This document shows, piece after piece, positions 1,714 through 24,698 of a stretch of DNA of 24,802 bases. Origin of the DNA: a virus (Duplodnaviria; Heunggongvirae; Uroviricota; Caudoviricetes); the IMG/VR virus record IMGVR_UViG_2778261420_000001, positions 1 to 24,802 of that record. One strand, 5' to 3'. The position numbers and the translations under genes are program-made. Each line of letters begins with the position of its first letter. The stretch's first letter is position 1. The notes under the pieces were generated by a model. It searched no databases. It was not told the DNA's origin and saw nothing but the letters and a program-made list of their open reading frames with translations.

Positions 1714-4536
1714 ATGACGACAGAGTACATCAGGGACTGGCAACAACCGCGCCACGCAGTGGGGCGTGAAGGAACGGGGATCCCCGCACCTGAATCCGCG
1801 CTTTCCTCCTGGCTGGATGCCTACCAGGCAGAGAACGAGCGCCGACAGGAAAAGGCTGATGCGGCGTTCTCTGCCACGCCACTGGGCAACCTGATTAATA
1901 AAAGCCTGGACGCACAGGAAAAACAGGACAAAACCATCACGCTGGCAGGAGACGCCAGAAGACAGGCACGCGGCGCGGTGGATGAAGCCATGGCCTCGCT
2001 GCGCCTGCTGCCGTCCTATCTGCGCGATCCGCTTATTCGCCACCTCTCCTTCCTGCGCAAAAAACAGGAAGTCGATCGCCGGAAAGGCAAAAAGAGCTGG
2101 CAGGCAGAACGCTATGCACGCGGAACCCTGCGCAAAATATTCGAACGTCTGGATCGCACTGACGGACACTGGCTGACACCGGGTTATCGCTCCCTTGCCG
2201 GACGCGAACGCCTGGACGATTTGCTTTACCTGCCGCAGCTCAACAAACACCAGATACAGACGCTGGCCACCATGACGGCGGCGATGTTCAGCAGCACCTT
2301 CGAAAAACTCTGCGATGGCTTTGGTGCGACTGATGGCGAGCTGACCATGGATGTAACGCTGAAGGCGTATCAGATGCTGGCCCGCATGGCGTTACACCTG
2401 CACGCCATGCCTCCGCATTATGACGCACTGACAACAGACAAAGGCCGGAGGAACGAACCAGACACGGAGCTGCTGCCGGGCGCAATCCTTCGCCTGACCT
2501 GTGCGGAATGGTGGAAACGCAAACTGTGGCTGTTACGTTGCGAGTGGAGAGAAGAACAACTCCGCGCCGCCTGTCTGGTTTCCAGAAAAACATCGCCCTA
2601 TCTGAGCCAGGATGCGTTAAGCGAGTTTCGCGCACAGCGCGAGAAAACACGCGATTTCCTGAAAAGTTTCATGCTGGAAAACGAAGACGGGTTCACGATT
2701 GATCTTGAGACAGTGTATTACGCGGGAGTAAGTAACCCGGTTCACCGTAAGGCAGAAATGATGGCCACCATGAAGGGGCTGGAACTTCTGGCCGAAGCCC
2801 GTGGCGACAGAGCGGTGTTTCTGACTGTCACCTGCCCGTCAAAATACCACGCAACAACGGAGAACGGTCATCCGAATCCCAAATGGAACGGGGCCACTAT
2901 GCGCGACTCCAGCGATTACCTGGTTAACTCGTTTTTTGCGGCGGTCCGCAAGAAACTGAACCGCGACGGCCTGCGCTGGTATGGCATCCGCACGGTGGAG
3001 CCTCACCATGACGGCACCGTGCACTGGCATATGATGGTCTTTGCTCATCCGGAAGAAATCGACACCATTGTGTCCCACACCCGCGATATTGCCATTCAGG
3101 AAGATCGTCACGAGCTGGGTGATGATATTACCCCACGCTTTAAGGCAGAGTACGTCGACGGCTCAAAAGGCACACCGACCAGCTACATCGCCACCTACAT
3201 CGGAAAGAACCTGGACAGCCGCGCCGTGGATGGTATCGACCCGAAAACGGGCAAGCCACGCGTTGACCACGAAACCGGAAAATCAATGGCCGAGAGCGTG
3301 GAGCGCGCCATCGGCTGGGCGCGCCTTCACCGGGTCCGCCAGTTCCAGTTCTTTGGCATCCCCTCCCGTCAGGTGTGGCGTGAACTGCGCCGCCTTGCCA
3401 GCCAGATGGCACGCAACCCGGAAGGCCCGCAACGGCTGAAGGATGACGCAATGGATGCAGTGCTCGCTGCCGCTGATGCCGGGTGTTTTGCCTCCTACAT
3501 AGAGAAACAGGGCGGCGTACTTGTTCCACGCCAAGACTACCTGATTCGCACCGCCTACGACCTCGCAGATGAGCTGAACGATTACGGCGAACAGAGCGTA
3601 CAGATTTACGGGATCTGGTCACCACTCATCGGGGAGTCTTCCCGTGTGTGCACACATCCGGATAACTGGAAGCTGGTAAGACGTAAACCGGAAGCGGAAG
3701 ACAGCGCCCGCGAAAATGGTTTTGACCTTCAGGGCGGCCCTGCCGCCCCTTGGACTCGTGGCAATAACTGTCCCCGTGTACAGGAAACGGACAACAACGG
3801 GACAGAACAGCCGGAAGAACGGCCAGCACCGTGGCCGCAGCTCCCTGACGGCGTTGAAGTGAACGAATGGATGCGCTCACTGAAACGGCACGAACGCCGG
3901 GCGCTGATGCGTTCGCTTCGTGACAAACAGGCAAAAAACAGCAGTGATGAAATGCAGAACTGGACACAGAGCCGCAAACAGTCACAGCCTTTGCCTGATA
4001 ACCACGAATTACTCGCTAAAGAATGGCGGGAATCTGCCGAATCTCTCGGCCTGCATATCGGTGAACAGCAGATGCAGCACCTGTTACGGGGCGGCAGCCT
4101 GTACGTTGACGGCAGCATCATTGCACCACAGGGATTTGAAATTGTACGTAAACCGGATACCCGCCCGGACAGCCGAATCACGCAGCTCTGGCAGCACCTG
4201 AGCCGTAATCACGGCGTAAGCAGCACGGAGATCCGCCATAATCCGGTCGCCAGCTATCTGGCACAACTGGGGGCATCAGACCCCGAAGCCGCCGCACGTC
4301 TGGCATCCACACTTCAGCAGGACCAGAACACCATGAAAACCCCCGTTACCGTGCTTTCTGACATGCTGCGCGCCATCCGTGACGCAGAGCACGCACAGAG
4401 AATCAGTGAAACAACTGAACGCGCCCGCCGCAAAGCAGACCTGCTGCGGGGTGGCCTGACCAGTAGAAACAAAAAACAGACAGAAACGGGATTCACAAAT
4501 CCCGTAAATGAGCAAAAAACGCGCCGCGATATATGA
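1714..4536 (+). CDS. A: Replication initiation protein, phage gpA family (rolling-circle nickase), 940 aa with a long C-terminal extension
   Basis: Track ORF contains hallmark gpA motifs: VFLTVTCPSKYHA, the HWHMMVF histidine pair, and SYIATYIGKNLD carrying the catalytic tyrosine region. It is roughly 180 aa longer than P2 A as I recall it; the extra C-terminus is rich in Q/R/E/K. Confidence 0.9.
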   Translation: MTTEYIRDWQQPRHAVGREGTGIPAPESALSSWLDAYQAENERRQEKADAAFSATPLGNLINKSLDAQEKQDKTITLAGDARRQARGAVDEAMASLRLLPSYLRDPLIRHLSFLRKKQEVDRRKGKKSWQAERYARGTLRKIFERLDRTDGHWLTPGYRSLAGRERLDDLLYLPQLNKHQIQTLATMTAAMFSSTFEKLCDGFGATDGELTMDVTLKAYQMLARMALHLHAMPPHYDALTTDKGRRNEPDTELLPGAILRLTCAEWWKRKLWLLRCEWREEQLRAACLVSRKTSPYLSQDALSEFRAQREKTRDFLKSFMLENEDGFTIDLETVYYAGVSNPVHRKAEMMATMKGLELLAEARGDRAVFLTVTCPSKYHATTENGHPNPKWNGATMRDSSDYLVNSFFAAVRKKLNRDGLRWYGIRTVEPHHDGTVHWHMMVFAHPEEIDTIVSHTRDIAIQEDRHELGDDITPRFKAEYVDGSKGTPTSYIATYIGKNLDSRAVDGIDPKTGKPRVDHETGKSMAESVERAIGWARLHRVRQFQFFGIPSRQVWRELRRLASQMARNPEGPQRLKDDAMDAVLAAADAGCFASYIEKQGGVLVPRQDYLIRTAYDLADELNDYGEQSVQIYGIWSPLIGESSRVCTHPDNWKLVRRKPEAEDSARENGFDLQGGPAAPWTRGNNCPRVQETDNNGTEQPEERPAPWPQLPDGVEVNEWMRSLKRHERRALMRSLRDKQAKNSSDEMQNWTQSRKQSQPLPDNHELLAKEWRESAESLGLHIGEQQMQHLLRGGSLYVDGSIIAPQGFEIVRKPDTRPDSRITQLWQHLSRNHGVSSTEIRHNPVASYLAQLGASDPEAAARLASTLQQDQNTMKTPVTVLSDMLRAIRDAEHAQRISETTERARRKADLLRGGLTSRNKKQTETGFTNPVNEQKTRRDI

Positions 4537-4583
4537 AGCGCGCACAAAACAGGCGAAAACGGGATTTAAAAATCCCGTAAACG
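4469..4583. repeat. Two ~40-bp direct repeats, each containing an 8-4-8 palindrome ACGGGATT-N4-AATCCCGT; candidate operator or centromere (parC-like) site
   Basis: Copy 1 core ACGGGATTCACAAATCCCGT at ~4486-4505 (inside the last codons of gene A) and copy 2 ACGGGATTTAAAAATCCCGT at ~4558-4577, with similar flanks (AAACAG.C..AAACGGG ... CCCGTAAA). Copy 2 lies about 35 bp upstream of the parM-like start codon. Confidence 0.5.
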
Positions 4584-4612
4584 ATTAATTAATCAACATA
4601 AGGAAAAGCGAC

Positions 4613-5572
4613 ATGAAAATTTGTATCGACGACGGCTCCACCAACATCAAGCTGGCATGGACTGAGAACGGCGAACGCCGCAACGCCATCAGCCCGAACA
4701 GCTTCAAGTCGGAATGGTCTGCGCCGTTCGGTGGCACGCAGCCCGCGAACTACATGCTTGATGGCGTGCGCTATGGTTTTGATCCGGTCAGCGATCGCTT
4801 TGTCCAGACGACCGACACGCAATACCAGTACAGCGATGTGAATGTAATCGCCATTCACCACGCGCTGGTCAAATCAGGCATCACACCACAGGAAGTGGAT
4901 GTGGTTGTTACCCTGCCACTGAGCGAGTATTTCGACACAAACGCACAGCCGGACATGGCCAACATCAACCGCAAAAAAGCGAACGTTATGCGCCCGGTGG
5001 AGTACCAGAACGGCGAGGCATTCACTATCCGTAACGTGCGGGTTATGCCTGAATCCATTCCGGCTGGTTTTAAGGCACTGGCTGACATGAGTCCGTTTGA
5101 ATCCCTGCTGATTGTGGATTTGGGCGGAACCACGCTGGATGTGGCAAAGGTTCAGGGGCAACTGGCAGGTATCAGCCAGGTGTTTTGCGATCCACACGTA
5201 GGCGTTTCTCTGATGGCCGATGCCGTGCTGTCGGTGATGGCCACCAACGGTATGCGCACCAGTCACCACATCGCCAATACCATTATCGAACATCGCCACG
5301 ATGAAGCCTGGCTGCGCCAGCACATCCACAATGACGCGCATTACGCCAGCCTGATGGCAGTTATTCGTGAAAAGGAGGAAACACTGAAACAACGCGTGAT
5401 CCGCGCGCTGGCGGTTTTTTCGGGTTACGGGCGGGTGATGGTTGTAGGTGGAGGAGCGGAGATTGTGGCACCCGCTATCCGCGAAGCCTGCGGAGTTAAT
5501 GCGACTTTCATCGCGGACGGGGTGCCACAGTTTGCTCTGGTTAATGGGCTGTACGCAATGGACAAGGAGTAA
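4613..5572 (+). CDS. parM: ParM/StbA-family actin-like segregation ATPase (319 aa)
   Basis: Track ORF aligns along its whole length, from memory, with plasmid R1 ParM: N-terminal IDDGSTNIKL phosphate motif, YSDVNV..HHAL, VMPESIPAG, L.IDLGGTTLD, VMV.GGGAE and C-terminal LVNG.Y. Shine-Dalgarno AAGGAAAAG upstream. Confidence 0.9.
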   Translation: MKICIDDGSTNIKLAWTENGERRNAISPNSFKSEWSAPFGGTQPANYMLDGVRYGFDPVSDRFVQTTDTQYQYSDVNVIAIHHALVKSGITPQEVDVVVTLPLSEYFDTNAQPDMANINRKKANVMRPVEYQNGEAFTIRNVRVMPESIPAGFKALADMSPFESLLIVDLGGTTLDVAKVQGQLAGISQVFCDPHVGVSLMADAVLSVMATNGMRTSHHIANTIIEHRHDEAWLRQHIHNDAHYASLMAVIREKEETLKQRVIRALAVFSGYGRVMVVGGGAEIVAPAIREACGVNATFIADGVPQFALVNGLYAMDKE

Positions 5573-5576
5573 ATCA

Positions 5577-5891
5577 ATGACGACACCAACCAGACGGATA
5601 AGTTTCTATCTGAAGCCCGCCGTCGTCAAGAGCGAACGGGAGGCGTGCAGTTACCTCGACAGCCTGCCAGCCTCCGAACGCAGCCGCGCACAACGCGCGG
5701 CTTTTCTGGCTGGACTGGCTCTTATAAAACGCACCCCCGCGTTGGCGTATTCGCTGGCAGAATGGTCAGAAGACGAAATACGGATGCCACCGCTACCAGT
5801 ACAGCCTGAAAAACCGGCGCAACCAGCAGCAGACAGCGCCCCCCATATGCAGCAGGTGAAAAAGAATATTCAGGCGTTTTTCCCGAAGTGA
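5577..5891 (+). CDS. parR: ParR-like ribbon-helix-helix centromere-binding protein / operon repressor (104 aa)
   Basis: ATG at 5577 with AAGGAG Shine-Dalgarno embedded in the end of parM, 4 nt after the parM stop. N-terminal segment ISFYLKP...SYLDSLPASERSRAQRAAFLAGLAL resembles R1 ParR (…TLDSIPQGERSRLNRAALTAGLAL). The track ORF 5448-5891 extends upstream into parM and is taken to be an artefact. Confidence 0.8.
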   Translation: MTTPTRRISFYLKPAVVKSEREACSYLDSLPASERSRAQRAAFLAGLALIKRTPALAYSLAEWSEDEIRMPPLPVQPEKPAQPAADSAPHMQQVKKNIQAFFPK

Positions 5892-5905
5892 AAACAGGAG
5901 TAACT

Positions 5906-6193
5906 ATGTCCACCATTACCAAAGAATGGTTACAACGTAAAATCACAGAGTTTAAATCGTGGCGCGAAGACATCCCGTTCGGTCTTGATGAAGACGATCA
6001 CAATATGTTAATCGCACTGGAAATCGCACTTGCATCACTGGAAGCAGAGCCAGTGGCATGGATGCACGCAAATAATCCTATTGGAATACCGGCGATAACA
6101 AGAAGTAAAGATGTTGCAGACAGCTGGCGCTCTAAGGGATGGAATGTATTGCCTCTTTATTCACTGACCCGCCCCATCAATTTATGCCATTAA
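5906..6193 (+). CDS. Hypothetical protein (95 aa), cargo gene of unknown function
   Basis: In-frame ATG at ~5906 preceded by CAGGAG Shine-Dalgarno, starting about 15 nt after the parR stop. It sits at the point where the sequence becomes visibly AT-richer. No recognised domain. Confidence 0.55.
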   Translation: MSTITKEWLQRKITEFKSWREDIPFGLDEDDHNMLIALEIALASLEAEPVAWMHANNPIGIPAITRSKDVADSWRSKGWNVLPLYSLTRPINLCH

Positions 6194-6204
6194 TGGAAGT
6201 AATC

Positions 6205-6564
6205 ATGATGAAAGATAATTCCGGAAGCCAGCGTGCATCAGTTGCAGTTATGGTAATGATTAAATTTGTGAAACAGTACACCGGAAAGCCAATCTCACTC
6301 CGGCAATTAAGCAAAGAAACCGTTTCACTGTCATATCTGGAGCAAATATTCAGATATTTACGGGAAAGTAGCTTGGTAAAAGCCACACGCGGCCCGGGTG
6401 GTGGATATATCCCGACAAAAGAAAATTACAGTGTTGGTGATATTGTCCGGGCAATGAAATGTTCCGGATTATATACACAGCACGTTATTCTGGCTGCACT
6501 GGATAATATTTCTTTAACCAGCCTGCAGGAAGACACAAATTATCAGTTGTCTGCCATTGAATAA
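6205..6564 (+). CDS. Rrf2-family-like winged-helix transcriptional regulator (about 119 aa; start uncertain, 6184-6208)
   Basis: Contains the Rrf2 wHTH signature ISLRQLSKETVSLSYLEQIFRYLRESSLVKATRGPGGGY. No Cys cluster, so probably not Fe-S binding. AT-rich relative to its flanks and directly abuts the preceding ORF. Confidence 0.6.
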   Translation: MMKDNSGSQRASVAVMVMIKFVKQYTGKPISLRQLSKETVSLSYLEQIFRYLRESSLVKATRGPGGGYIPTKENYSVGDIVRAMKCSGLYTQHVILAALDNISLTSLQEDTNYQLSAIE

Positions 6565-6569
6565 GAAAA

Positions 6570-6610
6570 CCCGGAACGGGTGCGCAAATTCTTTGTGCGC
6601 CCGTTCCGGG
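6570..6610. terminator. Long GC-rich hairpin between convergent genes (bidirectional intrinsic terminator candidate)
   Basis: CCCGGAACGGGTGCGCAAA - TTC - TTTGTGCGCCCGTTCCGGG: a near-perfect ~19-bp inverted repeat starting 6 nt after the Rrf2-like stop and ending about 20 nt before the convergent Ogr-like gene's stop. Confidence 0.6.
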
Positions 6611-6632
6611 TTGGACAAGCGAAGCGCGTCAG

Positions 6633-6890
6633 CTATCCGGCCTGCAACAACTCCAGAGCCATTTGTTTTTCTTCCGGACGCATCCGCTCAATCAACAGCT
6701 TTAACACACCATTCTCCAGCCCGCTGGGCACCAGTGTGTGCGAGTAGGTCAGATTCATCACCCAGGTATGTCCGCACTCGAGACGGGTGCAACGGTAATA
6801 CACATCAGCAAACTGATCGGTTTTCCAGGCTGTTTTCTCAATCACTGCATGTGCACCGCAGCAATGACATCGCGCTTTCTGTCTGCGCAT
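6633..6890 (-). CDS. Ogr/Delta-family zinc-finger late-gene transcriptional activator (about 85 aa)
   Basis: Start moved to the internal ATG (MRRQKARCHCCG...) which has a GGAGGTGGAAA Shine-Dalgarno. Cys spacing C-x2-C-x22-C-x4-C matches P2 Ogr / P4 Delta exactly, and there is a ...VPSG... segment like Ogr. Confidence 0.7.
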   Translation of the reverse strand: MRRQKARCHCCGAHAVIEKTAWKTDQFADVYYRCTRLECGHTWVMNLTYSHTLVPSGLENGVLKLLIERMRPEEKQMALELLQAG

Positions 6891-6955
6891 TTTCCACCTC
6901 CCGGAACAGCGTTTTACTGCCACCGATTTTACCCGCTCTTTCCCCATACCGCACA

Positions 6956-7990
6956 TCACTCCATGGGTTCATCAAAATCAAGAATAAATTTCACCTCCCC
7001 CAGTCGTCTGATATCCGGGTCGCTGTTGATCCCCTCCATAATCAGGCGGCGCATCGGGATAACCTCATCCCTGTAATATGCCTCGCGGGATTTCAGTGGG
7101 TCACCAAGCCCGGCCGTATTTGCGGGAATGATGCCGGCAAGTCCGGGTGGGAAACGGTGCGCGACGAGCTGATCCTGGGCACTGATGGTTTTTATATTCA
7201 GGAACTCATCTTTTGTACCTGAATCCCCGATAGGGATCACCTTAACGCCTTCTTTGTCTCCGCCCGGTATATTGATAAACATGGATTTAAAATTGCCCGC
7301 CCCTTTTGACGCCTCTATCTTTTTACGGAATTCCGCCTCGAGCTCGGGATCCATGTCCGGGTCAGTGGAATACAGGATATAACCAAGATGTGCGCCGTTC
7401 TTGTAATACTTGCGGCGAAAGCGGGTGGCATCCACATTCAGCATGGCGGATTCCATCCCGTGAATATAATCCGGTACACCGTAAACCTGCTGTTGCGGGT
7501 CATAAATGGCCACGAACACCACTTCGCCTGGCGGGTAAACGAGATCTTCCAGTGCCGCCTGCACAATCACCGTGCCACCCTCGTTGTTACGCCGCAGGTA
7601 CAGCGACGGCAGTGTGTGCAGGCGCACTACCAGACCGAAGCCATTGCGCACTTTAAGCAGACCCATATCCCCGAATATCAGCAGATTGGTCACCGCTGCC
7701 GCCATGGCGGCGTGTGTCATACCACCGCCCCCCCTAAAACCCTGCATGATCATATTGACGCGCGCACGCAATACCGCGCCGTGATACGGTGCGATATTGG
7801 CCAACATAGCGAGATCCATGCGCTCAATGGGCGGCGTGTACCAGCCGTTATAGCCATCCCAGAGCGAGCCGTAATAACAGCCCCATGCAGCGACTGGTTC
7901 CGGGTCACCAAATTCAATAAACGTCATTTTGCTGGCTGTTTTTTTTGCCACGCCATCGTGTAGCACGGGGGATTTTTTCTTTTTACTCAT
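6956..7990 (-). CDS. Q: Portal protein, P2 gpQ-like (344 aa)
   Basis: Same length as P2 Q and positioned immediately downstream of, and overlapping by 8 nt, the terminase ATPase gene on the same strand, as in P2. Confidence 0.85.
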   Translation of the reverse strand: MSKKKKSPVLHDGVAKKTASKMTFIEFGDPEPVAAWGCYYGSLWDGYNGWYTPPIERMDLAMLANIAPYHGAVLRARVNMIMQGFRGGGGMTHAAMAAAVTNLLIFGDMGLLKVRNGFGLVVRLHTLPSLYLRRNNEGGTVIVQAALEDLVYPPGEVVFVAIYDPQQQVYGVPDYIHGMESAMLNVDATRFRRKYYKNGAHLGYILYSTDPDMDPELEAEFRKKIEASKGAGNFKSMFINIPGGDKEGVKVIPIGDSGTKDEFLNIKTISAQDQLVAHRFPPGLAGIIPANTAGLGDPLKSREAYYRDEVIPMRRLIMEGINSDPDIRRLGEVKFILDFDEPME

Positions 7991-9770
7991 CTGACAGGAT
8001 CCATGTTGATTTGCGCTTGTGCTTATAGTTCAGGGGTTCATTACTTGCGGCATGAGCTATGGCAAAGAAGATGTCTGCGTGCCCGGTTTTTTCGCTACGT
8101 TCGGCGGTGAAAGTGACTTTATTGCCACTGTTAGTGGACTCCTGACGAATGGCCAGGAACGATGCCGGAATATCTGTGGCTTCTTCATCCCACTCAATAC
8201 GGTTGGCGTAAATCAGATCCAGCATCTTCATCACCAGGCGGTTTTTGGATTCAACGCTGTAATGAATGGCCACTGTTTCACGGCGGGCAAATCCCTGAAC
8301 CAGCTCAAAGACACCGTAGCCAAGACCGGTGACGTCAATGCCGATAAATGTCATGTTATAGCGCGCCTTAATGCTGCGGATACGCTCTGCCATAAACTGG
8401 AATGACATACTGCGCCAGTGGTGTTTTTCCAGCACGCGGAATCGTTCTGCCGAAACCAGCGGCGGTGCCAGCACCACAAACGTGGCGTTATCGCCGGAGC
8501 GCGCAGGGTCAAAGCCACCCCACACCTCACGGTTACCAAATGGCATGGGTTCTTCCGGGTGAAAATCCTCCCACGTACTGACATCAACGCCACAGCGCAC
8601 GAGGTCATCGAATTTAAAGACGCTCTCTTTGTCATCCACAAACACACACATAAACAGCATATTGAACGCTGTTTCGTTGTATCGCTCGCGCAGCTCGTTG
8701 ATGTCAGCAAGGTTAAAGCCGCCGGCAATGGCATCTTCCAGCGTAACCACATAGCGCCACTGACCGTCCGGGCATTCGCGCCCGCCATCACGCAGTTCAT
8801 CAAAGGACGGAAACTCAACCCCTTTTCGTTTCGGATCACCTTTGCGCCATTCATCGCCAGACCAGAACGGATAACCCTGGTGTGTTTTGGATGACGGCGT
8901 GGAGAAATAGGTAATGCGCCAGTGTTTATGGGTGGCCATCCCTGACGCCACTTCATTGAGACGGCGAAAACCGGGGATCCACAGGTATTCGTCAATGTAC
9001 AGGTGGCCGCTGTTTGACTGTGCCGTGTTGCTGTTGGTCGCCAGAAAATACAGTTCAGCCAAATTACTTAACTTAACCGGATTGCCTTTAATGGGAATGC
9101 CAAACTCTGTTTGTGCAATTTTTACAATATAAGTACGGAACACTTCGGCCTGACGTTTTGATGCCGATAAAAATATCTGTGTGTCGCCGGTTAATACCGC
9201 ATCTTCAAACGCCTCAAACGCGAAGTAATACGTCGCCCCAATCTGACGGGATTTAAGCAGGTTGCGTACACGGCGGAATTTGTTTTCACGCAGGCGCAAC
9301 TGATAAGCAAACAACTTCTTCGTAAACGGCTCAAAACTTTCAGCAGTCAGTCCGGAAACGTCATTAGTTTTGCGGGGACGCTCTTTCTTACCTGCACCTT
9401 TTTCTCCGCGTTCTTCTTTTCCATAACGGCCCGGCTGGGGGATGTCCACTCCCATTCGCGCAATCTCAGCCATTCGTTCCGTGTGCTTGTTTCTGACCGA
9501 CATTAGTTTGACGTGATGACCAATCAGGCGGTCGAGTTCATCGTGTTCTTCCGGCGTTTTATGGTCACGCTCCGCCAGTACAGCGAGACGCCGGGCGATA
9601 ACATCCTCCACACCTTCCGTATTGAGCTGCGTGTACCACTCAAACTTTGTCGCCCAGTAATAAACAATTCGCGGGCTGTTCAGTCCGAGTTTCTTTTGTA
9701 TTTCTTTTGGTGTGTGCCTTTTCAGATAGAGCGATTTTGCAGCAGCAATCACCTCATCAGAATACGCCAT
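7983..9770 (-). CDS. P: Terminase large (ATPase) subunit, P2 gpP-like (595 aa)
   Basis: Shares the gpP-type segments KSRQIGATY.FA.EAF, GMAT...W..TYFSTPS, VWGG.DP.R.GD...FV..APP and GYGVFELVQ. Transcribed divergently from the O-N-M-L operon, as in P2. Confidence 0.9.
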   Translation of the reverse strand: MAYSDEVIAAAKSLYLKRHTPKEIQKKLGLNSPRIVYYWATKFEWYTQLNTEGVEDVIARRLAVLAERDHKTPEEHDELDRLIGHHVKLMSVRNKHTERMAEIARMGVDIPQPGRYGKEERGEKGAGKKERPRKTNDVSGLTAESFEPFTKKLFAYQLRLRENKFRRVRNLLKSRQIGATYYFAFEAFEDAVLTGDTQIFLSASKRQAEVFRTYIVKIAQTEFGIPIKGNPVKLSNLAELYFLATNSNTAQSNSGHLYIDEYLWIPGFRRLNEVASGMATHKHWRITYFSTPSSKTHQGYPFWSGDEWRKGDPKRKGVEFPSFDELRDGGRECPDGQWRYVVTLEDAIAGGFNLADINELRERYNETAFNMLFMCVFVDDKESVFKFDDLVRCGVDVSTWEDFHPEEPMPFGNREVWGGFDPARSGDNATFVVLAPPLVSAERFRVLEKHHWRSMSFQFMAERIRSIKARYNMTFIGIDVTGLGYGVFELVQGFARRETVAIHYSVESKNRLVMKMLDLIYANRIEWDEEATDIPASFLAIRQESTNSGNKVTFTAERSEKTGHADIFFAIAHAASNEPLNYKHKRKSTWILSDE

Positions 9771-9857
9771 AAATAAACCTCACCTGCTGATGCAATTTTA
9801 ATTTATGCATTTTCAGCAAAGGCTTTTTTAAAAACGAATATCGCTTTTCGGTATTTT

Positions 9858-9881
9858 TCGGATATATACGCATATCCGAAA
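9858..9881. promoter_or_regulatory. Perfect 9-bp inverted repeat TTCGGATAT-N6-ATATCCGAA in the divergent P/O late-promoter region
   Basis: Located in the ~190-bp AT-rich intergenic region between the divergently transcribed terminase and scaffold genes. A second dyad, ATGCA-N11-TGCAT, lies at ~9795-9815. Candidate binding sites for the late activator or another regulator. Confidence 0.3.
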
Positions 9882-9964
9882 GTACCGGAAATTAATCAGA
9901 TGACGACATTTTTATTTCTCCGTTAAATAACGCCAGTTTAATTTTTATCAGCGGGTTAATTCAG

Positions 9965-10855
9965 ATGTCGAAACTGAAAACAGACTGGGTGGTCGTAGCC
10001 ACTTCAGGCCCCACCATCGACGGTCGGGAAATTGATCCAAAGTGGCTGACGGATGCCGCCGAGGTTTATAACCCGGACGAACACACCGCCATGCTCTGGC
10101 CGTTTCATGCCAGCGCCGGCTGGCGTGCTTTCACCAATAACTATGGTCTTGTTGATGCACTGAAGGCGGAAAAAGTCGGTGATAAAGTGCAGCTGAAAGC
10201 CCGCCTGATACCCAACCGCTTTCTGACCGAAGCCAACGAGGCTGGACAAAAACTTTTCACCTCCATAGAGGTAAAGGAAAACTACCTGGGAACAGGCAAA
10301 TTCTTTGTATCCGGTATCGCTGTGACTGACACACCGGCCAGCATCAACACCACCCGCCTGCAATTTTCGCAGGGAGATTCCATTCACATGGGGAATGCAG
10401 AAGAACTGAATTTCACGCTGCAGTCTGACGACGAGCAGGCCAAACGCAGTTTCTTTTCCGGCCTTTTCTCCGTGGGACGCAACAAACAGGAAAACGATAT
10501 GAACGAAAAACAGTTCAGCCAGTTGATGGACGCTATCAACAAAACCGGCGAACGCCTGGACAAACTGGAAGAAAACGTCGCGCAGTTCAGCGCGAAGGAT
10601 GCCCCGAAAGATACCTGTGATAACAAGCCGGAAGGCAGCACCGGCGATCAGGGGCAGGACAACGCAGAACAGAACAACAAGGACGACAAAACCTTCACGC
10701 TGACCACCGAGCAGGGCGAAAAGCTGTTCTCCACAGTGAACGCCATCGCGGAGAAGGTTACCAGTATGGAAACCGCATTTGCTGAACTCAGCAAGGACGC
10801 CACGAAGCTGCCGGGCAACAATCCGGCCGGTGGCGAAACTTTTAACCTGGTGTAA
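9965..10855 (+). CDS. O: Capsid scaffolding protein, P2 gpO-like (296 aa)
   Basis: First gene of the rightward head operon; the N-terminal region resembles gpO (...VDGREI...L.AEK...; ...GIAVTDTPAS...) and the C-terminal half is a charged coiled-coil-like stretch. Confidence 0.8.
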   Translation: MSKLKTDWVVVATSGPTIDGREIDPKWLTDAAEVYNPDEHTAMLWPFHASAGWRAFTNNYGLVDALKAEKVGDKVQLKARLIPNRFLTEANEAGQKLFTSIEVKENYLGTGKFFVSGIAVTDTPASINTTRLQFSQGDSIHMGNAEELNFTLQSDDEQAKRSFFSGLFSVGRNKQENDMNEKQFSQLMDAINKTGERLDKLEENVAQFSAKDAPKDTCDNKPEGSTGDQGQDNAEQNNKDDKTFTLTTEQGEKLFSTVNAIAEKVTSMETAFAELSKDATKLPGNNPAGGETFNLV

Positions 10856-10869
10856 CCGGAGAGAACGCA

Positions 10870-11883
10870 ATGAACATGACACCAGAAGCACAAAAGCTGG
10901 TTAATCAGTACATCAGCGAACTGCAAAAAACATTCAGTGACTGCGGGAAATCAAGCGATCGTTTCTTTTCGCTGACCGAGCCACGCAGTATTGCTCTGCG
11001 TAAAGCCCTGCTGGAAAGCACGGAGTTTCTGAGTTTCATCACCTGCATGGACGTTCCGCACCCGCAGGGGCAGGTCGTCACCGTGGGCGAATCCACACTG
11101 CGCACCGGTCGCGTGAAAAGCGGTCGTTTCGCTAAAGGTTCGGGCATCAAAGGCAACGAATTTAAACTCGTTGAAACTGATTCCTGCTGCGTGATCACCT
11201 GGGAACAACTCGCCATCTGGGCGAATGCCGGCAGCCCGCAGGAATTTTTCAACCTGATGAACTCCGCCGCCGTTACCAACTTTGCGCTGGATATGCTGCG
11301 CATTGGCTTTAACGGTAAAACAGCAGCGGAAAACTCTGACCCGGAAAGTCACCCGAACGGCGAAGACGTCAACATCGGCTGGCATGAAATCGCCAAAAAG
11401 TGGGGAGAACAGCCCGGCAATACCTCCCGTATTCTGACAGACGCCGTTACCCTGGGCGAAGGCGGCGATTATGTCGGTCTTGATGCCATGGCCTCAGACC
11501 TGATCCGCACTTACATCCCGGCACAGTATCACAACGACCCACGACTTACCGTACTGGTCGGCGCAGACCTTGTGGCTGCTGAAGAACTACGCCTCTACAA
11601 CAAAGAGGATAAGCCTACCGAAAAAGTGGCCGCACAGTTGCTGACGAAGAACATTGCAGGCCGCAAGGCCATCATTCCGCCGTTTATGCCGGGCAAACGT
11701 ATGGTGGTGACCATGCTGCCAAACCTGCAGATCCTGACGCTGAAAGGCTCCCGCCGCCGCAAGGCAGAAGATGTGGGCGATCGCAAACAGTTCGAAAACT
11801 CATACTGGCGTTACGAGGGGTACGCCCTGGGCGATCCGGATTTATATGCTGCCGTAGATGAGTCTGCGGTCACCATCGCCTGA
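10870..11883 (+). CDS. N: Major capsid protein, P2 gpN-like (337 aa)
   Basis: GGAGAG Shine-Dalgarno then ATG. Shares gpN-type motifs (GFNGKTAAENSD..., GEGGDYVGLDAM, NDPRLTVLVG). Lies between the scaffold and terminase small-subunit genes. Confidence 0.85.
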   Translation: MNMTPEAQKLVNQYISELQKTFSDCGKSSDRFFSLTEPRSIALRKALLESTEFLSFITCMDVPHPQGQVVTVGESTLRTGRVKSGRFAKGSGIKGNEFKLVETDSCCVITWEQLAIWANAGSPQEFFNLMNSAAVTNFALDMLRIGFNGKTAAENSDPESHPNGEDVNIGWHEIAKKWGEQPGNTSRILTDAVTLGEGGDYVGLDAMASDLIRTYIPAQYHNDPRLTVLVGADLVAAEELRLYNKEDKPTEKVAAQLLTKNIAGRKAIIPPFMPGKRMVVTMLPNLQILTLKGSRRRKAEDVGDRKQFENSYWRYEGYALGDPDLYAAVDESAVTIA

Positions 11884-11900
11884 TAAACGGAGCGCACGGT

Positions 11901-12611
11901 ATGCCAACGCCAATGCAGCGACAACGTGCCCGACAGATGGATGAGCGCCGTGCGGCGCTCATGACCAGAACGGACGGGAGCGCCATCAGCACAGAGAGTC
12001 AGCACATTAAGCTGCTGGCACTGGATAACGACATCAGACAACTGCACAACATGGAGCTGCTGTCTGACAAGCTGGAATTCAAACGGAACACGCTGCTGCC
12101 CCGCTGGCTGCCACACGCACAGGCTTATCTGGAGGGGGAACGCGTCTATCAGAATCCCATTCTGGTGTACTGCATCATCTGGCTGTTCGATACCGGGCAG
12201 TTTGAGATGGCGCTGCGGTGGGCTGACATTGCCATTGAGCAGGGGCAAAAGACGCCGGAGAACTTCAAAAGCGAGCTGCCAACGTTTGTGGCCCATTTCA
12301 TTCTTGAATGGGCAGAAACCGAAGCTGAACGCGGGAACAGTATCGCGCCATATTTTCAGCAGGTGTTTGAAAAAATCCGTGACAAATGGCGCGTGAATGA
12401 ACGCCTTGCTGCCCGCTACTGGCGCTTTGCAGGCGTCCTGCTGCTGCGCGGCGATGACGGTAAACCGCTGGCCAGTGCAATTAACGATCCGGAGAGACTG
12501 CAACAGGCCGACCAGTGTCTGGAACAGGCTGCCTGGCTGCATCCAAAAATTCAGGTGAAAACCCTGCGCCAGCGCATTGCCGCAAGACTGCGCGCGTTGC
12601 AGGGCACGTAA
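11901..12611 (+). CDS. M: Terminase small / endonuclease subunit, P2 gpM-like (236 aa)
   Basis: Conserved Q-P-O-N-M-L synteny, gpM-like size, and an N-terminal MPTPMQRQRARQM... segment similar to P2 M as I recall it. Confidence 0.8.
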   Translation: MPTPMQRQRARQMDERRAALMTRTDGSAISTESQHIKLLALDNDIRQLHNMELLSDKLEFKRNTLLPRWLPHAQAYLEGERVYQNPILVYCIIWLFDTGQFEMALRWADIAIEQGQKTPENFKSELPTFVAHFILEWAETEAERGNSIAPYFQQVFEKIRDKWRVNERLAARYWRFAGVLLLRGDDGKPLASAINDPERLQQADQCLEQAAWLHPKIQVKTLRQRIAARLRALQGT

Positions 12612-12709
12612 ACGACTCCCAACAACCGGGCGGGCGCGGTGGAGGTGTGCCGGCAAAAGCCATCAGCACACTGCGGAAACCGGTCAGCCCGCCTTTCCCC
12701 GGAGTGAGC

Positions 12710-13204
12710 ATGTTTGACGGGAAAAGCATTCACTATCAGCAGGCCATTATTCAGAACGATGGATTCTGGCCGGATATTGATGCCGGCGATTTTGAAAAGA
12801 GCCGCAGCATCCCCGCCGTCACGTCACACGAAACGGTGCTGACGGCGCTGCTTTGCGCGGTAACAGAGATTAACACTGAACTGGCTGCACGCCGTGAATA
12901 CTGGCAGGAACAGGGCTACATCCGGGCCGCTGATATTCCGGGTTACACCGTGTTGCAACCAGAGCCGCGCAATACGGATGCACAACCTGAACAGATGCAG
13001 AACCACATTACAGCACTGTACACCAAGGCTGTGTATGCACGCGCAAAGGCTGATCTTTTGCCGGAATCTGCCAGCGTGGGGCGACGCGAGGCGCAGCCCT
13101 CATCAGAAGCCAGCGAGAGCCGCCGGACGTTGCTGGCTGAAGCGGCAATGGCGGTGCGGGCGCTGCTGGGCCGACCGCGTGCATCCATCGCGCTGATTGA
13201 TTAA
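12710..13204 (+). CDS. L: Head completion/stabilisation protein, P2 gpL-like (164 aa)
   Basis: Start taken at the ATG after a GGAGTGAG Shine-Dalgarno; the track ORF begins upstream at 12515. Contains a gpL-like FWPDIDAGDF motif (P2: FFPDIDPK). Confidence 0.8.
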   Translation: MFDGKSIHYQQAIIQNDGFWPDIDAGDFEKSRSIPAVTSHETVLTALLCAVTEINTELAARREYWQEQGYIRAADIPGYTVLQPEPRNTDAQPEQMQNHITALYTKAVYARAKADLLPESASVGRREAQPSSEASESRRTLLAEAAMAVRALLGRPRASIALID

Positions 13205-13213
13205 GGAAATGGT

Positions 13214-13687
13214 ATGACGCAACTCGCCAGCCTGACGGCATTCATTGAAAACAATCTGCCGGCACGCGCACGCATTCCGTTCACCAGTGACATGGATGAC
13301 ATAACGCTCCTTCCGTTTACGAAGTCGCTGGGGCACGGGCAGTTATGTACGCAGGTCCGAAAATATACAGCTTTTCTGCGATGGGACGCATGGCCCTATC
13401 GTCAGCTCAATCCGGATTTGGTGTTTTCTCTGGTTGAAGCCTGGCTGGCAGACAACGCCGGCGACCTGCGCCAGCGCCTGGCACCGGATGCGCCAGCCGT
13501 TGACGTCGAAGTGGATGATGAAAATGAAGTTGCATGGTTGGAAATCAGTCTGCCGCTGGTTGATCCCATCACCCTGGTTGAGGATGAAAACGGCCCCATC
13601 CCCAGAGGCGGGAAACGTTACCAGCTGGAAAAGCCTGAAATCTGGGTGGCTCAGGCGCATCAGCTTCACTGTCAGGTGATGCCATGA
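13214..13687 (+). CDS. Hypothetical virion protein (157 aa), possibly a head-tail joining component
   Basis: AAGGAAA Shine-Dalgarno then ATG, tightly packed between gpL and the next gene with an ATGA stop/start overlap. Acidic C-terminal half. Function inferred from position only. Confidence 0.45.
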   Translation: MTQLASLTAFIENNLPARARIPFTSDMDDITLLPFTKSLGHGQLCTQVRKYTAFLRWDAWPYRQLNPDLVFSLVEAWLADNAGDLRQRLAPDAPAVDVEVDDENEVAWLEISLPLVDPITLVEDENGPIPRGGKRYQLEKPEIWVAQAHQLHCQVMP

Positions 13688-14397
13688 CGCGCCCAGTGAT
13701 TAACGAGTCACAACTCCGGCAGGTTCGTCGCGCCATCAGAGAGGCAGAACTTCCGCCGGCAAAGGCCAGAAAGCTGCTGGTTCGCATTGCGAAATACGGC
13801 CTGATACCGGTTGCACGACGCAATGTGAAAGCACAGCGAACACCGGAGGGGGCAGCCTGGGCACCACGAAAAAGACCGGATAAAGCCAGCGGCAGGTATA
13901 AAAACAAAATGCTGCTGGGACTGCCGAAACTGCTGGCCATCAGGGTTGACGGCAGCGGGAAAAGTGTCCGCCTTTTCTTCAAAAAAGGGGATTACAACAC
14001 CGGCTCTCATGGTGGGGCGGTCGCGTGGGTGCAACAGCACGGCGCAACCATCAAAGGCCGCGCCACAAAACGCCGGGACAGCGAAGCCATGCGCACCCGT
14101 CCCGCCACACGACGGCAGGCAGAACGCCTTCTTTCTCTGGGCTTTCGCGCCCCCGTCGGCGCAGTCAGCAAAAAAACCGGACGCAGGGGACGCAGAAAGC
14201 CTTCTCTGAAATGGATTATGGAAAACATGAGTATGGCGCAGGCCGGACTGGTGATCAGCATTCTGAAAGGCGAGCAGAAAAAACGTGTATGGGAAATCAA
14301 AATCCCCTCCCGCGCATTTCTGGGAGCCAGCGATGCTGAATTTGCCCGCATTCTGGAAGCGCAGCTGCGCAGCCTGCATTACGGCGGCACGAGATAA
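13684..14397 (+). CDS. Putative virion morphogenesis / tail completion protein (237 aa)
   Basis: Translationally coupled to the previous ORF and lying between the head module and the sheath-like gene. Basic, Arg/Lys-rich protein. Assignment is positional. Confidence 0.4.
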   Translation: MTRPVINESQLRQVRRAIREAELPPAKARKLLVRIAKYGLIPVARRNVKAQRTPEGAAWAPRKRPDKASGRYKNKMLLGLPKLLAIRVDGSGKSVRLFFKKGDYNTGSHGGAVAWVQQHGATIKGRATKRRDSEAMRTRPATRRQAERLLSLGFRAPVGAVSKKTGRRGRRKPSLKWIMENMSMAQAGLVISILKGEQKKRVWEIKIPSRAFLGASDAEFARILEAQLRSLHYGGTR

Positions 14398-14416
14398 CAA
14401 AATCAGGAGACAAACC

Positions 14417-15565
14417 ATGACATGGCCATCTGTCACGATTGAACAGTACAACACATTCAGCAGTTCACCGGACGGCGTGGAAAATACGCTGCTGTTTGTG
14501 GGCAATGCACAAAACAACAAAGGTAAGGTTCTGCCGGTTAATACCAACAGCGATCTGGATGAACTGCTGGGAACAAACGCCAGCCCGCTGAAGAACTTCC
14601 TTCAGTCTGCGCTGACCAATGCCGGACAGAATGCCTTTTTCTATGTTGCCGTTCTGCCGGAAGCCGGCAAAGGCAAAAGTGTAGCGCCAGCCTACCAGGT
14701 ATGGCAGAACGCCATACTGGCGGCTCAGGAAACTGTATCAGTTGAAGGCGTGGTGATCACCGAGCCGGTCAGCACGAAGGATGACATCAACGCCATACAG
14801 GCGTTACGTCAGACCATCATCAATAAATATCAGCGCCGCATCTGGTTCATCCTGACCATCGCCGCCAACGACAACAGTAAAACCTGGGCGGAATACGTTG
14901 CCGAACTGACCGCGCTACAGAAAGGCATTGCTGCTCCGCAGGTCATGCTGGTTCCGGAGATTTTTGGATTTGAACCGGGCGTTCTTGCCGGTCGCCTGTG
15001 TAACAGCGCTGTTACCATTGCTGACAGTCCGGCACGTGTGGCAACCGGGCCCCTGTCCGCACTGAAAACCACAGAACGCCCGAAAGACAGCACAGGGCAG
15101 GCAATTGATCTCGACACTCTGCAGGCACTGGCAACCGCCCGCTACAGCGTGCCCATGTGGTATGCCGACTATGACGGCCTTTACTGGGCTGACGGTGTAA
15201 CACTTGAGGTGGAAGGCGGGGACTACAACGTCATTGAGCATGTCCGCATTGCTGATAAGGTGGCGCGCCGCGTGCGGCTGATGGCCATCCCCAAGATTGC
15301 CGACCGCTCGCTGAACAGCACGCCGGGCAGCATTGCCGCACATGAAACGCTGTTTGCCCGCCCACTGCGTGCCATGGCGAAATCCATGCAAATTAACGGC
15401 ATCACGTTTCCGGGCGAAGTGAAATCGCCCCGGAAAGGCGACGTGGTTATCACCTGGCAGGACGAAAAGACGGTCAGCATCAGCATTGTCGTCCGCCCTT
15501 ACGCCTGCCCTAAAACCATCAAAGTGGGCATTCAGCTGGATAAATCTCTGGAGGAAAACGCATGA
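14417..15565 (+). CDS. Putative tail sheath protein (382 aa), not P2 FI-like
   Basis: CAGGAG Shine-Dalgarno then ATG at ~14417; the track ORF starts further upstream at 14285. It is the first large gene of the tail cluster and is followed by a tube-sized gene, chaperones and tape measure. I could not align it to P2 FI from memory. Confidence 0.5.
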   Translation: MTWPSVTIEQYNTFSSSPDGVENTLLFVGNAQNNKGKVLPVNTNSDLDELLGTNASPLKNFLQSALTNAGQNAFFYVAVLPEAGKGKSVAPAYQVWQNAILAAQETVSVEGVVITEPVSTKDDINAIQALRQTIINKYQRRIWFILTIAANDNSKTWAEYVAELTALQKGIAAPQVMLVPEIFGFEPGVLAGRLCNSAVTIADSPARVATGPLSALKTTERPKDSTGQAIDLDTLQALATARYSVPMWYADYDGLYWADGVTLEVEGGDYNVIEHVRIADKVARRVRLMAIPKIADRSLNSTPGSIAAHETLFARPLRAMAKSMQINGITFPGEVKSPRKGDVVITWQDEKTVSISIVVRPYACPKTIKVGIQLDKSLEENA

Positions 15566-16017
15566 CGACCCGCATTAACGGCATGGCGTTTGACACTTTT
15601 ATCGGTGGAACGGATATCCATGTGAAAAGCATCTCACTGGACATCAGCGATGAAAGCGCCGTTGCCAAAACCCGTGGCATCCCTGACGGCAAACTGCGCG
15701 GCCCTGTCAGTGCCGAAGGTGAAATCGAAATGAGTACCCGCAGCTTTAACCAGCTCGGGGAAGTGGCTGCTCAGGCGGGATCGTGGCGTGACCTGCCGCC
15801 AATGGATTTTGTGTTTTACGCCAACACGGGCACTGAAGAAATCCGCGTTGAAGCCTTCGGTTGTGAGCTGATGCTTTCCGGCCTGTTAAGCATTGACACC
15901 GAAAGCGCAGATCTGACCACGCACAAAATCAAGTACGTGGTGGCAAGCCCTGACTTTGTGCGTATCAACGGCGTGCCCGTTCTCTCAGAGAACGACGTGC
16001 GCGGACTGATGGGGTGA
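15562..16017 (+). CDS. Putative tail tube protein (151 aa)
   Basis: ATGA overlap with the sheath-like gene; size and position are typical of a contractile-tail tube protein. Confidence 0.45.
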   Translation: MTTRINGMAFDTFIGGTDIHVKSISLDISDESAVAKTRGIPDGKLRGPVSAEGEIEMSTRSFNQLGEVAAQAGSWRDLPPMDFVFYANTGTEEIRVEAFGCELMLSGLLSIDTESADLTTHKIKYVVASPDFVRINGVPVLSENDVRGLMG

Positions 16018-16020
16018 ACC

Positions 16021-16317
16021 ATGCAGGAGCATGAGCGCACCATTATCACCCTGGGCATTCTGGGTGGAATCGCTGCCGCAAGTCGGGTGCTGGCTGGCGC
16101 AGAGCCGATTACGTTGCGGTTGTTTGTGGGTCGAACCCTGCTGGGGAGCGCGCTGGGTGTTTCTGCCGCTGCCCTGCTGGTTCGTTACCCGAACCTTGAC
16201 CCACTGGCCATTGCCGGCGCAGGCACTGCAATGGGCGTTGCCGGTTACCAGATTGTTGAAATCTTCCTGCGTCATATGCGCCGGAAGCTGGGCGAGAAAG
16301 AGAACAAAGAGGAGTAA
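16021..16317 (+). CDS. Holin-like small membrane protein (98 aa)
   Basis: Three predicted hydrophobic helices (IITLGILGGIAAASRVLAG, TLLGSALGVSAAALLV, LAIAGAGTAMGVAGYQIV) followed by a charged C-terminus (RHMRRKLGEKENKEE); lies immediately upstream of the endolysin. Confidence 0.55.
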   Translation: MQEHERTIITLGILGGIAAASRVLAGAEPITLRLFVGRTLLGSALGVSAAALLVRYPNLDPLAIAGAGTAMGVAGYQIVEIFLRHMRRKLGEKENKEE

Positions 16318-16322
16318 CAGCA

Positions 16323-16430
16323 ATGCTGTCCCGCAGGGAACAAAAAGCTGCTGCCATTGCCTGGAAAATTATCCGGGCACTGTGGTACTGGCTGCGCAAA
16401 CCTCAGCAACCTCATAAGGAGCAAAAATGA
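16323..16430 (+). CDS. Small ORF (35 aa) between holin and endolysin; possible lysis-cassette accessory peptide
   Basis: Not in the supplied track because it is under 60 aa. ATG at ~16323 with a strong AAAGAGGAG Shine-Dalgarno; its stop overlaps the endolysin start (ATGA). Peptide MLSRREQKAAAIAWKIIRALWYWLRKPQQPHKEQK is amphipathic and Trp-rich. Confidence 0.4.
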   Translation: MLSRREQKAAAIAWKIIRALWYWLRKPQQPHKEQK

Positions 16431-16768
16431 AACTCTCCGATAAGCAACAACAATTTACCGTCATGATCGGAAAACTCATCCAGTTTGCCCATCAGCGCGG
16501 TTATGGCCTGACGTTCGGTGAGGCGTACCGCACGCCAGAACAGGCAAAACTCAACGCACAAAAGGGATCCGGCATTGCCAACAGCCTGCACTGCCAGCGG
16601 CTGGCCGTGGATTTTAATCTGTTTATTAACGGTGAATATCAGACCCACACAGAGGCCTACCGCGAGCTGGGCGAGTACTGGGAATCCCTTGGTGGCGCAT
16701 GGGGCGGTCGTTTTAAAAACCGCCCGGATGGCAATCATTTCAGCCTTGAGCACGACGGCGTGCGCTGA
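16427..16768 (+). CDS. Endolysin, peptidase M15-type (VanY-like, probable L-alanyl-D-glutamate endopeptidase), 113 aa
   Basis: AAGGAG Shine-Dalgarno then ATG. Zn-ligand pattern H-x6-D ... H (LHCQRLAVDFNLF ... DGNHFSLEH) and overall size are typical of small M15 phage endolysins. Confidence 0.75.
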   Translation: MKLSDKQQQFTVMIGKLIQFAHQRGYGLTFGEAYRTPEQAKLNAQKGSGIANSLHCQRLAVDFNLFINGEYQTHTEAYRELGEYWESLGGAWGGRFKNRPDGNHFSLEHDGVR

Positions 16769-16774
16769 TTTTAC

Positions 16775-16806
16775 GCTTAATAAGCCTTCCTGCAGGCTTA
16801 TTAAGC
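16775..16806. promoter_or_regulatory. 12-bp-stem inverted repeat GCTTAATAAGCC-N8-GGCTTATTAAGC after the lysis cassette (terminator or protein-binding site)
   Basis: Perfect inverted repeat 7 nt after the endolysin stop and about 27 nt before the chaperone start. The stem is AT-rich and is not followed by a clean T-run, so a regulatory site is as likely as a terminator. Confidence 0.3.
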
Positions 16807-16832
16807 CCTCTTATTCTTGACTTTAAAAGGAA

Positions 16833-23256: not shown

Positions 23257-23258
23257 CA

Positions 23259-23810: not shown

Positions 23811-23816
23811 GAAGTA

Positions 23817-24674: not shown

Positions 24675-24698
24675 TAGAAACTAAATAAGGGGAATATT

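Follow-up and report, generated by a model that had tools for sequence, protein, structure and literature searches.

Why should the replication gene of an integrating phage be followed directly by what looks like the partition cassette of a plasmid? The question is raised by a stretch of 24,802 nucleotides (IMG/VR virus record IMGVR_UViG_2778261420_000001, positions 1 to 24,802; hereafter the window) from a P2-like Escherichia coli prophage, in which four plus-strand open reading frames (ORFs) at 4613–6564, namely parM, parR, orf95 and an Rrf2-type gene, lie between replication gene A and the genes for ogr and the portal protein Q. An initial annotation, made from the letters alone, had read these four as a single cargo operon and had offered two explanations for it: a phage that persists as a partitioned plasmid, or an actin-like system recruited for defence or superinfection exclusion. 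Four closely packed plus-strand ORFs are indeed present, but they do not form one cargo unit. To judge from its distribution, the set comprising the candidate centromere parC, parM and parR is a lineage-conserved module of one sub-lineage of P2-like phages (the P88/Xuanwuvirus type and its relatives in the Enterobacterales) and not cargo, whereas we take orf95 and the Rrf2-like gene for independent cargo (morons) of low guanine plus cytosine (G+C) content in the gpA–gpQ hotspot. As for function, we think it on balance probable that this ParMRC system, made early, segregates transient extrachromosomal circles of the phage genome.

Module, arrangement and the idea of a phage-plasmid are already in the literature, and the initial annotation was wrong to suppose that nothing of the kind had been described for P2-like phages. 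Rousset et al. 2022 (PMC9122126) catalogued the gpA–gpQ locus of these phages as a hotspot; their Table S5A lists the exact five-gene arrangement, including WP_000104417 and WP_000211287, under which orf95 and ParR are listed for an identical genome (E. coli E200139), and they also speculated that such phages might be phage-plasmids. The module is annotated, too, in Sakai prophage Sp13 (as stbA) and in phage P88. In the literature we found no experimental test of parMR function in these phages. What is new here is modest: parMR is recognised as a conserved module with a phage-specific ParM clade and a two-site candidate centromere, one site of which lies inside gene A, and counts of the replicons that carry it argue against a stable plasmid lifestyle.

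The partition genes and their candidate centromere

The features on which the argument turns are the following.

1714–4536, plus strand: replication gene A, 940 aa, a P2 gpA-type rolling-circle initiator (Pfam Phage_GPA 2.1e-130; PHROG 91, 'nicking at origin of replication')
4470–4511, no strand assigned: parC-like repeat 1, a 42-nt unit with a 20-bp palindrome at 4486–4505, within the coding sequence of gene A (repeat search, shuffles)
4543–4584, no strand assigned: parC-like repeat 2, a 42-nt unit with a palindrome at 4559–4578, in the A–parM spacer (83% identical to repeat 1)
4613–5572, plus strand: parM, a partition ATPase of actin fold, R1 ParM/StbA type, 319 aa (Pfam; PDB 1mwk; PHROG 691, 'partition protein')
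5577–5891, plus strand: parR, a predicted centromere-binding adaptor of ribbon-helix-helix type, 104 aa (Pfam Plasmid_stab_B; 2jd3; ParR alignments)

The parM product matches the Pfam StbA_N domain (1.8e-82) and the ParM C-terminal domain (6.3e-69), and it aligns over its full length with ParM of plasmid R1 (PDB 1mwk; 314 bits, E 8e-93); in a scan of NCBIfam its ParM matches were sub-threshold only. The alignment to 1mwk reveals that the DDGSTN, MPESIPAG, DLGGTTLD and GGGAE motifs have been kept, and the phosphate-1, phosphate-2, catalytic Glu and adenosine motifs by which the actin-fold ATPase of a type II ParMRC system is recognised are all present. The initial identification of this gene as a ParM/StbA actin-like ATPase is therefore borne out, and the loss of ATPase motifs that would have betrayed a degenerate remnant is not seen.

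Selection has acted strongly to preserve this protein: parM is under strong purifying selection, with a ratio of nonsynonymous to synonymous substitution rates (dN/dS) of 0.01–0.18 against four relatives, and 99% amino acid identity is maintained at about 95% nucleotide identity. The phage copies share 95.6–99.7% of their amino acids. Outside this group, identity to the plasmid ParMs in PLSDB reaches at most 52%, if six records that hold the same prophage are set aside, and the ParM of phage-plasmid D6 is 48% identical. On these alignments, the phage ParMs are a discrete, phage-specific clade whose members are at least 95% identical to each other. A 98%-identical ParM also occurs on a 226-kb contig (NZ_JBQPOM010000071.1) labelled 'Vagococcus sp. 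WN89Y', a name that belongs to a Gram-positive genus; this contig is most likely a contamination or a mislabelled enterobacterial one.

Pfam places the parR product in Plasmid_stab_B, the ParR/StbB family (1.9e-24), and it has a weak match (E 0.009, residues 6–62) to the structure of the ParR/StbB protein of pB171 (2jd3), in agreement with its initial description as ParR-like. As befits the adaptor of a ParMRC system, it has an N-terminal domain of DNA-binding type, and its gene begins 4 nt after parM. The protein begins with a conserved N-terminal domain (residues 1–63) and ends in a C-terminal tail, KNIQAFFPK, that is likewise conserved; the linker between them is hypervariable. When it is compared with the ParRs of IncI and IncF plasmids, the N-terminal domain is kept, the linker varies, and the tail conforms to a common motif, (K/R)xN(I/A)xxxF(P/G), that includes N97 and F102. 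A break in DNA homology at about 5729–5774 was considered as a recombination junction inside parR and was rejected, because the protein alignment identifies it as the hypervariable linker, beyond which the tail is conserved again.

Two palindromes accompany these genes. The first, ACGGGATTCACAAATCCCGT, occupies 4486–4505, within the 3' end of gene A, and the second, ACGGGATTTAAAAATCCCGT, occupies 4559–4578, 34 nt ahead of the start codon of parM; each is contained in one of two 42-nt direct repeats that are 73 nt apart (about seven helical turns). Both of the palindromic repeats reported earlier ahead of the operon are thus real, but the first of them is inside the coding sequence of gene A. 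The palindrome pattern occurs twice in the window, a number reached in 0 of 100 shuffles, and the palindromic repeats are conserved in Sakai Sp13, strain 1070/13, P88 and pZ1323. The relative from Plesiomonas, with only 62% ParM identity, has two 26-nt repeats 72 bp apart, the first again within the 3' end of A. A search for further centromere half-sites (AACGGGATT, with 1 mismatch) found no enrichment beyond the two palindromes (12 against 5.9 expected; 3 of 100 shuffles reach 12).

No usable sigma-70 promoter was found upstream of parM, either in a scan of 4200–7100 or in a relaxed scan of 4380–4640; the best candidate between A and parM agrees with the sigma-70 consensus at no more than 8 of 12 positions and overlaps the start codon. 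Nor was a plus-strand terminator found between A and parM. Since both a terminator and a recognisable promoter are wanting here, parMR is probably read through from the early operon.

The arrangement is a familiar one. Like R1 ParMRC (parA/stb), the StbAB systems of IncF and IncI plasmids and par1 of pB171, the phage locus has the order repeats–parM–parR, and it shares with the R1/StbAB-type systems full-length ParM homology, the nucleotide motifs, the Plasmid_stab_B domain and the ParR tail. Nonetheless, the plasmid ParMs are only 46–52% identical to that of the phage, the phage ParR is about 35 residues shorter than plasmid ParRs (104 versus 138–140 aa), and the candidate centromere consists of two 20-bp GC-containing palindromes, one inside the upstream gene, where the plasmids have an AT-rich array of many iterons. 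Unlike the R1-type plasmid systems, moreover, the phage repeats contain no recognisable internal promoter, and the replicon that hosts the cassette is an integrating phage. With the parMR of the P88-like Xuanwuvirus group (P88, P884B11, vB_EcoM-569R5, phiSM and Sakai Sp13) our locus agrees in both module and position, and we see no essential difference in parMR.

Spread of parMR and the genes behind it

DNA that runs from the end of gene A through parM and most of parR is carried by 1304 of the 5426 complete E. coli genomes, about a quarter of the sample. All four genes are found together in just 37 of these 1304. The initial annotation had conceded that its proposal would fall if the operon were a common, already characterised module of this phage group; commonness and prior description are what these counts and PMC9122126 document, and experimental characterisation is not among them. 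The parMR module also occurs, among other phages, in P88, Xuanwuvirus P884B11, vB_EcoM-569R5 and Citrobacter phiSM, where it is annotated as ParM or partition protein, as well as in O157:H7 Sakai prophage Sp13. What comes after parR differs from one to the next: IS629 (an insertion sequence, IS) in Sakai Sp13, two unrelated ORFs in strain 1070/13, four small ORFs in P88 and a single 135-aa ORF in pZ1323PEC0009-2.

The same pattern extends across genera. Distant parM relatives came from a protein search (a single-protein scan of genome contigs returned near-identical copies only), and those traced to their contigs are from Hafnia and Plesiomonas (62% ParM identity), Serratia (58%) and Enterobacter ludwigii (54%). 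In Plesiomonas and Serratia gpA is followed directly by parM–parR, and in Hafnia and Enterobacter one or two small ORFs intervene. Behind parR these contigs have a variable slot (HicAB, a KAP NTPase, unknowns) and then (ogr and) the portal gene. The HicA/HicB toxin–antitoxin pair occupies the slot in Serratia and the KAP-family nucleoside triphosphatase (NTPase) in Enterobacter ludwigii, contents that are consistent with a hotspot for defence and addiction genes that starts only after parR.

In the window itself, G+C content is 55–58% through A, parM and parR and drops to 42–44% exactly after parR, in the two distal genes. Because parMR is constant among relatives and genera and has the G+C content of the phage, while orf95 and the Rrf2-like gene are variable and replaced by others elsewhere, the two pairs have to be treated as two units. 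The spacers between the four genes (4, 14 and 11 nt, with a gap of 76 nt between A and parM) fall within the 4–15 nt originally reported, and a Shine-Dalgarno sequence inside the preceding gene, originally claimed throughout, is found for parR only; those of orf95 and the Rrf2-like gene are in the spacers. The distal pair comprises:

5906–6193, plus strand: orf95, low-GC cargo of a family with an Ead/Ea22/Eaa-type N-terminal module, 95 aa (PHROG 660/60; homologue names)
6205–6564, plus strand: a short winged-helix protein of Rrf2/IscR type, low-GC cargo, 119 aa (Pfam Rrf2; alignment)

orf95 has no match in Pfam, NCBIfam or PADLOC. A large number of small proteins from enterobacterial prophages are related to it; they share an N-terminal module of Ead/Ea22/Eaa type that is often fused to DUF551, and its homologues bear such names as Eaa or DUF551-containing. 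When its AlphaFold model (predicted local distance difference test score, pLDDT, 82.7) was submitted to Foldseek, there was no match in the PDB, and the matches in BFVD were uncharacterised phage proteins only.

The fourth gene had been called an Rrf2-like regulator, a description that holds for its winged helix-turn-helix (wHTH) and is limited to residues 8–88, where Pfam Rrf2 (PF02082) gives 2.2e-13 and 50.9 bits against a cutoff of 30. The protein falls under every equivalog cutoff in NCBIfam (TIGR00738, 53.5 bits against 73.3; TIGR02010, IscR, 59 bits against 207). It shares with such Rrf2 regulators as IscR, NsrR and CymR a wHTH with an RGPGGGY wing, but in the alignment a deletion of about 26 residues removes the loop that holds their Fe-S cluster-ligand cysteines and leaves a single Cys. 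It has, in other words, the N-terminal wHTH of the Rrf2 family and lacks the Cys-rich sensor loop of the IscR/NsrR/RsrR subgroup, and it probably regulates phage or host genes as a constitutive DNA-binding protein. RefSeq starts the gene at ATG 6139 (6139–6564, 141 aa, with a 55-nt overlap with orf95); the 119-aa form that starts at 6205 is favoured by the gene calls on Salmonella contigs and by a protein cluster of 202 members. Close homologues are restricted to P2-like loci of E. coli and Salmonella. One distant relative (51%) is situated in a replication region of lambdoid type that has no orf95 homologue, and therefore the two distal genes do not constitute a conserved system.

Integration state and the role of the cassette

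In E. coli the module is almost always chromosomal. The segment of the window from 4400 to 6650 agrees at 100% identity with a chromosomal prophage of E. coli E200139, the closest full-length relative, which is inserted beside pheA/pheL and has an integrase, a C-type repressor and Cox. In the complete E. coli genomes, 1442 of the 1444 places where parMR occurs are chromosomal, and the larger 'plasmid' matches are replicons of 227 kb to 1.4 Mb with an inserted copy. There is also a circular 'plasmid' record of 34,461 bp, pZ1323PEC0009-2, which is a whole P88-type genome that keeps int, the C-type repressor and Cox, and a phage-sized contig of 32,167 bp from Plesiomonas shigelloides (WEKF01000002.1) that ends about 140 bp past int. 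A 26.8-kb Shigella 'plasmid' match was rejected as evidence of a plasmid state; it is a linear, IS-ridden fragment.

In P2 the sole replication function is gpA, which is encoded in a repressor-controlled early operon. If the same control applies here, parMR, transcribed by read-through from that operon, would be produced once the phage infects or is derepressed, not while it is integrated and repressed. Dimers of ParR would bind both palindromes, 73 bp apart, and the conserved C-terminal tail of ParR would capture the ends of ATP-bound ParM filaments. The growing filaments would then push sister phage circles replicated by gpA into opposite halves of the cell, with the consequence that both daughters would inherit the extrachromosomal form, undiluted, before integration or after excision. 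The pay-off could alternatively be a better spatial organisation of lytic replication, as for AlpAC of CGP3.

Each of these two outcomes has a precedent in an integrated element. The first is srpMRC (Carraro et al. 2015, PMC4489591), which reduces the loss of SXT/R391-group integrative and conjugative elements (ICEs) by stabilising their excised, relaxase-replicated form. Like the phage cassette, it is a type II system on a normally integrated element with an HUH-type, rolling-circle initiator that acts when the element is excised. It differs in that SrpM and SrpR are distant from R1 ParMR, to which the phage proteins are close, in that its host is an ICE, and in that its function has been demonstrated, whereas the phage cassette is known from sequence. 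The second is AlpAC/alpS of the Corynebacterium glutamicum prophage CGP3 (Donovan et al. 2015, PMC4446434), which is induced early and is needed for efficient replication of the phage DNA. Here, too, an integrated prophage encodes an actin-like protein and a DNA-binding adaptor with sites upstream of the operon, and AlpAC acts on circular phage DNA. In opposition, its actin-like protein is of another family, the adaptor gene comes first, the host is Gram-positive and the role that was measured is replication efficiency.

The segregation of a transient stage is the explanation that we favour, and the organisation of replication, as in AlpAC, is a close second. In its pure form the latter would have ParMR position and spread the replicating genomes and raise the efficiency of replication and packaging, with no role in inheritance. 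The location of parMR directly behind gene A, its probable early co-transcription and the CGP3 precedent (PMC4446434) all suit this explanation. But the proteins are close homologues, in structure and sequence, of a segregation machine, the ParR tail included, and P2 itself and about three quarters of the P2-like phages replicate without the cassette (PMC9122126), so that as the whole of its role we regard it as unlikely. Rather less likely still is a true phage-plasmid lifestyle, in which parMR would serve plasmid prophages that replicate autonomously and are actively partitioned over the long term, as the initial annotation had supposed and as was suggested in print (PMC9122126). In its favour are a canonical partition cassette that is intact and under selection, the circular P88-type record and the phage-sized Plesiomonas contig. 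Circular phage genomes in long-read assemblies are, however, often the products of spontaneous excision. The near-total preponderance of chromosomal places, the nature of the larger 'plasmid' matches and the retention of integrase, C-type repressor and Cox in both the E200139 prophage and the circular record fit such a state poorly, and no separate plasmid replicon is seen. By comparison with phage-plasmids of the P1, N15, SSU5 and D6 type, which are maintained outside the chromosome by a dedicated plasmid replication module and usually lack an integrase, these elements are almost always chromosomal in E. coli, have gpA as their only replication module and keep an integrase in the relatives.

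The other option of the initial annotation, that the actin-like system, alone or with the distal genes, defends the host or excludes phages, satellites or plasmids, draws on the position of the locus in a gpA–gpQ hotspot that is rich in anti-phage systems (PMC9122126) and on the two distal genes, which are typical low-GC morons. Positive evidence is wanting: a PADLOC search with the four proteins returned no match at E values up to 1, and none of them has an effector domain of nuclease, toxin or NTPase type. Furthermore, parMR is the constant and not the variable part of the locus, the distal pair is not conserved together outside this context, and Rousset et al. filed the partition system under 'other functions' (PMC9122126); a defence role is accordingly very improbable. 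The idea that the cassette is a decaying remnant of a captured plasmid module, now devoid of function, might be entertained for a copy with an IS element in its early region, the more so as IS629 is right behind parR in Sakai Sp13. It is scarcely credible given the dN/dS values and amino acid conservation of parM, the intact ParM motifs, the gpA–parM–parR synteny across genera at 54–62% ParM identity and the distance to the closest plasmid ParM, only 52% identical; as far as comparative data go, selection and synteny have already effectively refuted it.

Several observations nonetheless weigh against the segregation of transient circles. There are just two candidate binding sites, compared with roughly ten iterons in R1 parC. 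On the minus strand both palindromes resemble intrinsic terminators, with T-rich tracts after them (a terminator scan flags the first), and as such they could block antisense transcription into gene A. The promoter scans covered the sigma-70 consensus only, and a weak or activator-dependent promoter may yet drive parMR separately from the early operon. In this copy an IS3-family element lies about 1.1 kb upstream of gene A and may cut A–parMR off from the early promoter, in which case the early read-through would be broken. Finally, pZ1323PEC0009-2 and the 32.2-kb Plesiomonas contig fit a longer-lived plasmid state equally well.

The question nonetheless bears on about a quarter of the complete E. 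coli genomes, and on a cassette that is linked to the phage replication gene in several enterobacterial genera. If the cassette does segregate transient circles, this would account for the way in which some P2-like phages escape abortive lysogeny or loss following excision, and phages would join the integrating elements, so far ICEs, that make use of plasmid-type partition. We also suggest, much more tentatively and as a possibility that we consider doubtful, that the two-site centromere overlapping the end of gene A might give integrating phages a facultative, partitioned, plasmid-like phase that is coupled to gpA rolling-circle replication. Such a phase would let phages survive a failure to integrate, or an excision that is not followed by lysis; it would be the phage counterpart of the srpMRC of SXT/R391, and it would make the boundary between integrative prophages and phage-plasmids less sharp.

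Flanking genes and the mosaic genome

The setting of the locus had been described as P2-like, in the interval between gpA and gpQ where P2 has old and tin, and the flanking domains agree (Pfam; RefSeq): gpA (Phage_GPA 2e-130) on one side and Ogr_Delta, portal, terminase, GPO scaffold and a P2-family capsid protein on the other. The locus thus occupies the position of the gpA–gpQ hotspot. Two features lie at its right-hand end.

6568–6612, no strand assigned: a terminator-like hairpin with a perfect 21-bp stem and a T-run on the minus strand (free energy, dG, -39.7 kcal/mol; z -7.4)
6633–6959, minus strand: the ogr/Delta-type zinc-finger late activator, with its RefSeq start at 6890 (Pfam Ogr_Delta 1.4e-12; RefSeq)

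The hairpin is GC-rich, divides the plus-strand genes from the convergent ogr–Q–P genes and is probably a bidirectional terminator. The ogr gene, on the minus strand downstream of portal gene Q, is the right border of the variable slot.

At the other end, positions 1–632 are the interior of an IS3-family transposase gene (rve and rve_3 domains), and P88-type sequence begins at 633. Because the window starts inside this element, the early end of this prophage copy is not visible. The junction between IS and phage at 632/633 was found in no complete E. coli genome.

The cos site, expected in the neighbourhood of the hairpin, was not located: a search with the P2 cos sequence, allowing up to 3 mismatches, found no match. 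By megablast, the late region (6565–24802) matched none of 50,697 phage records; it contains head genes of P2 type and tail genes of HP1 type (Phage_HP1_Orf24, DUF2586, DUF2590). Judged by its gene content, the genome is mosaic, with an early region like that of P88 joined to a different late module. Compared with P88 itself, it differs in the distal cargo, in the HP1-type tail module and in the position of ogr, which here comes after Q and in the P88-type pZ1323 record is near the end of the tail genes.

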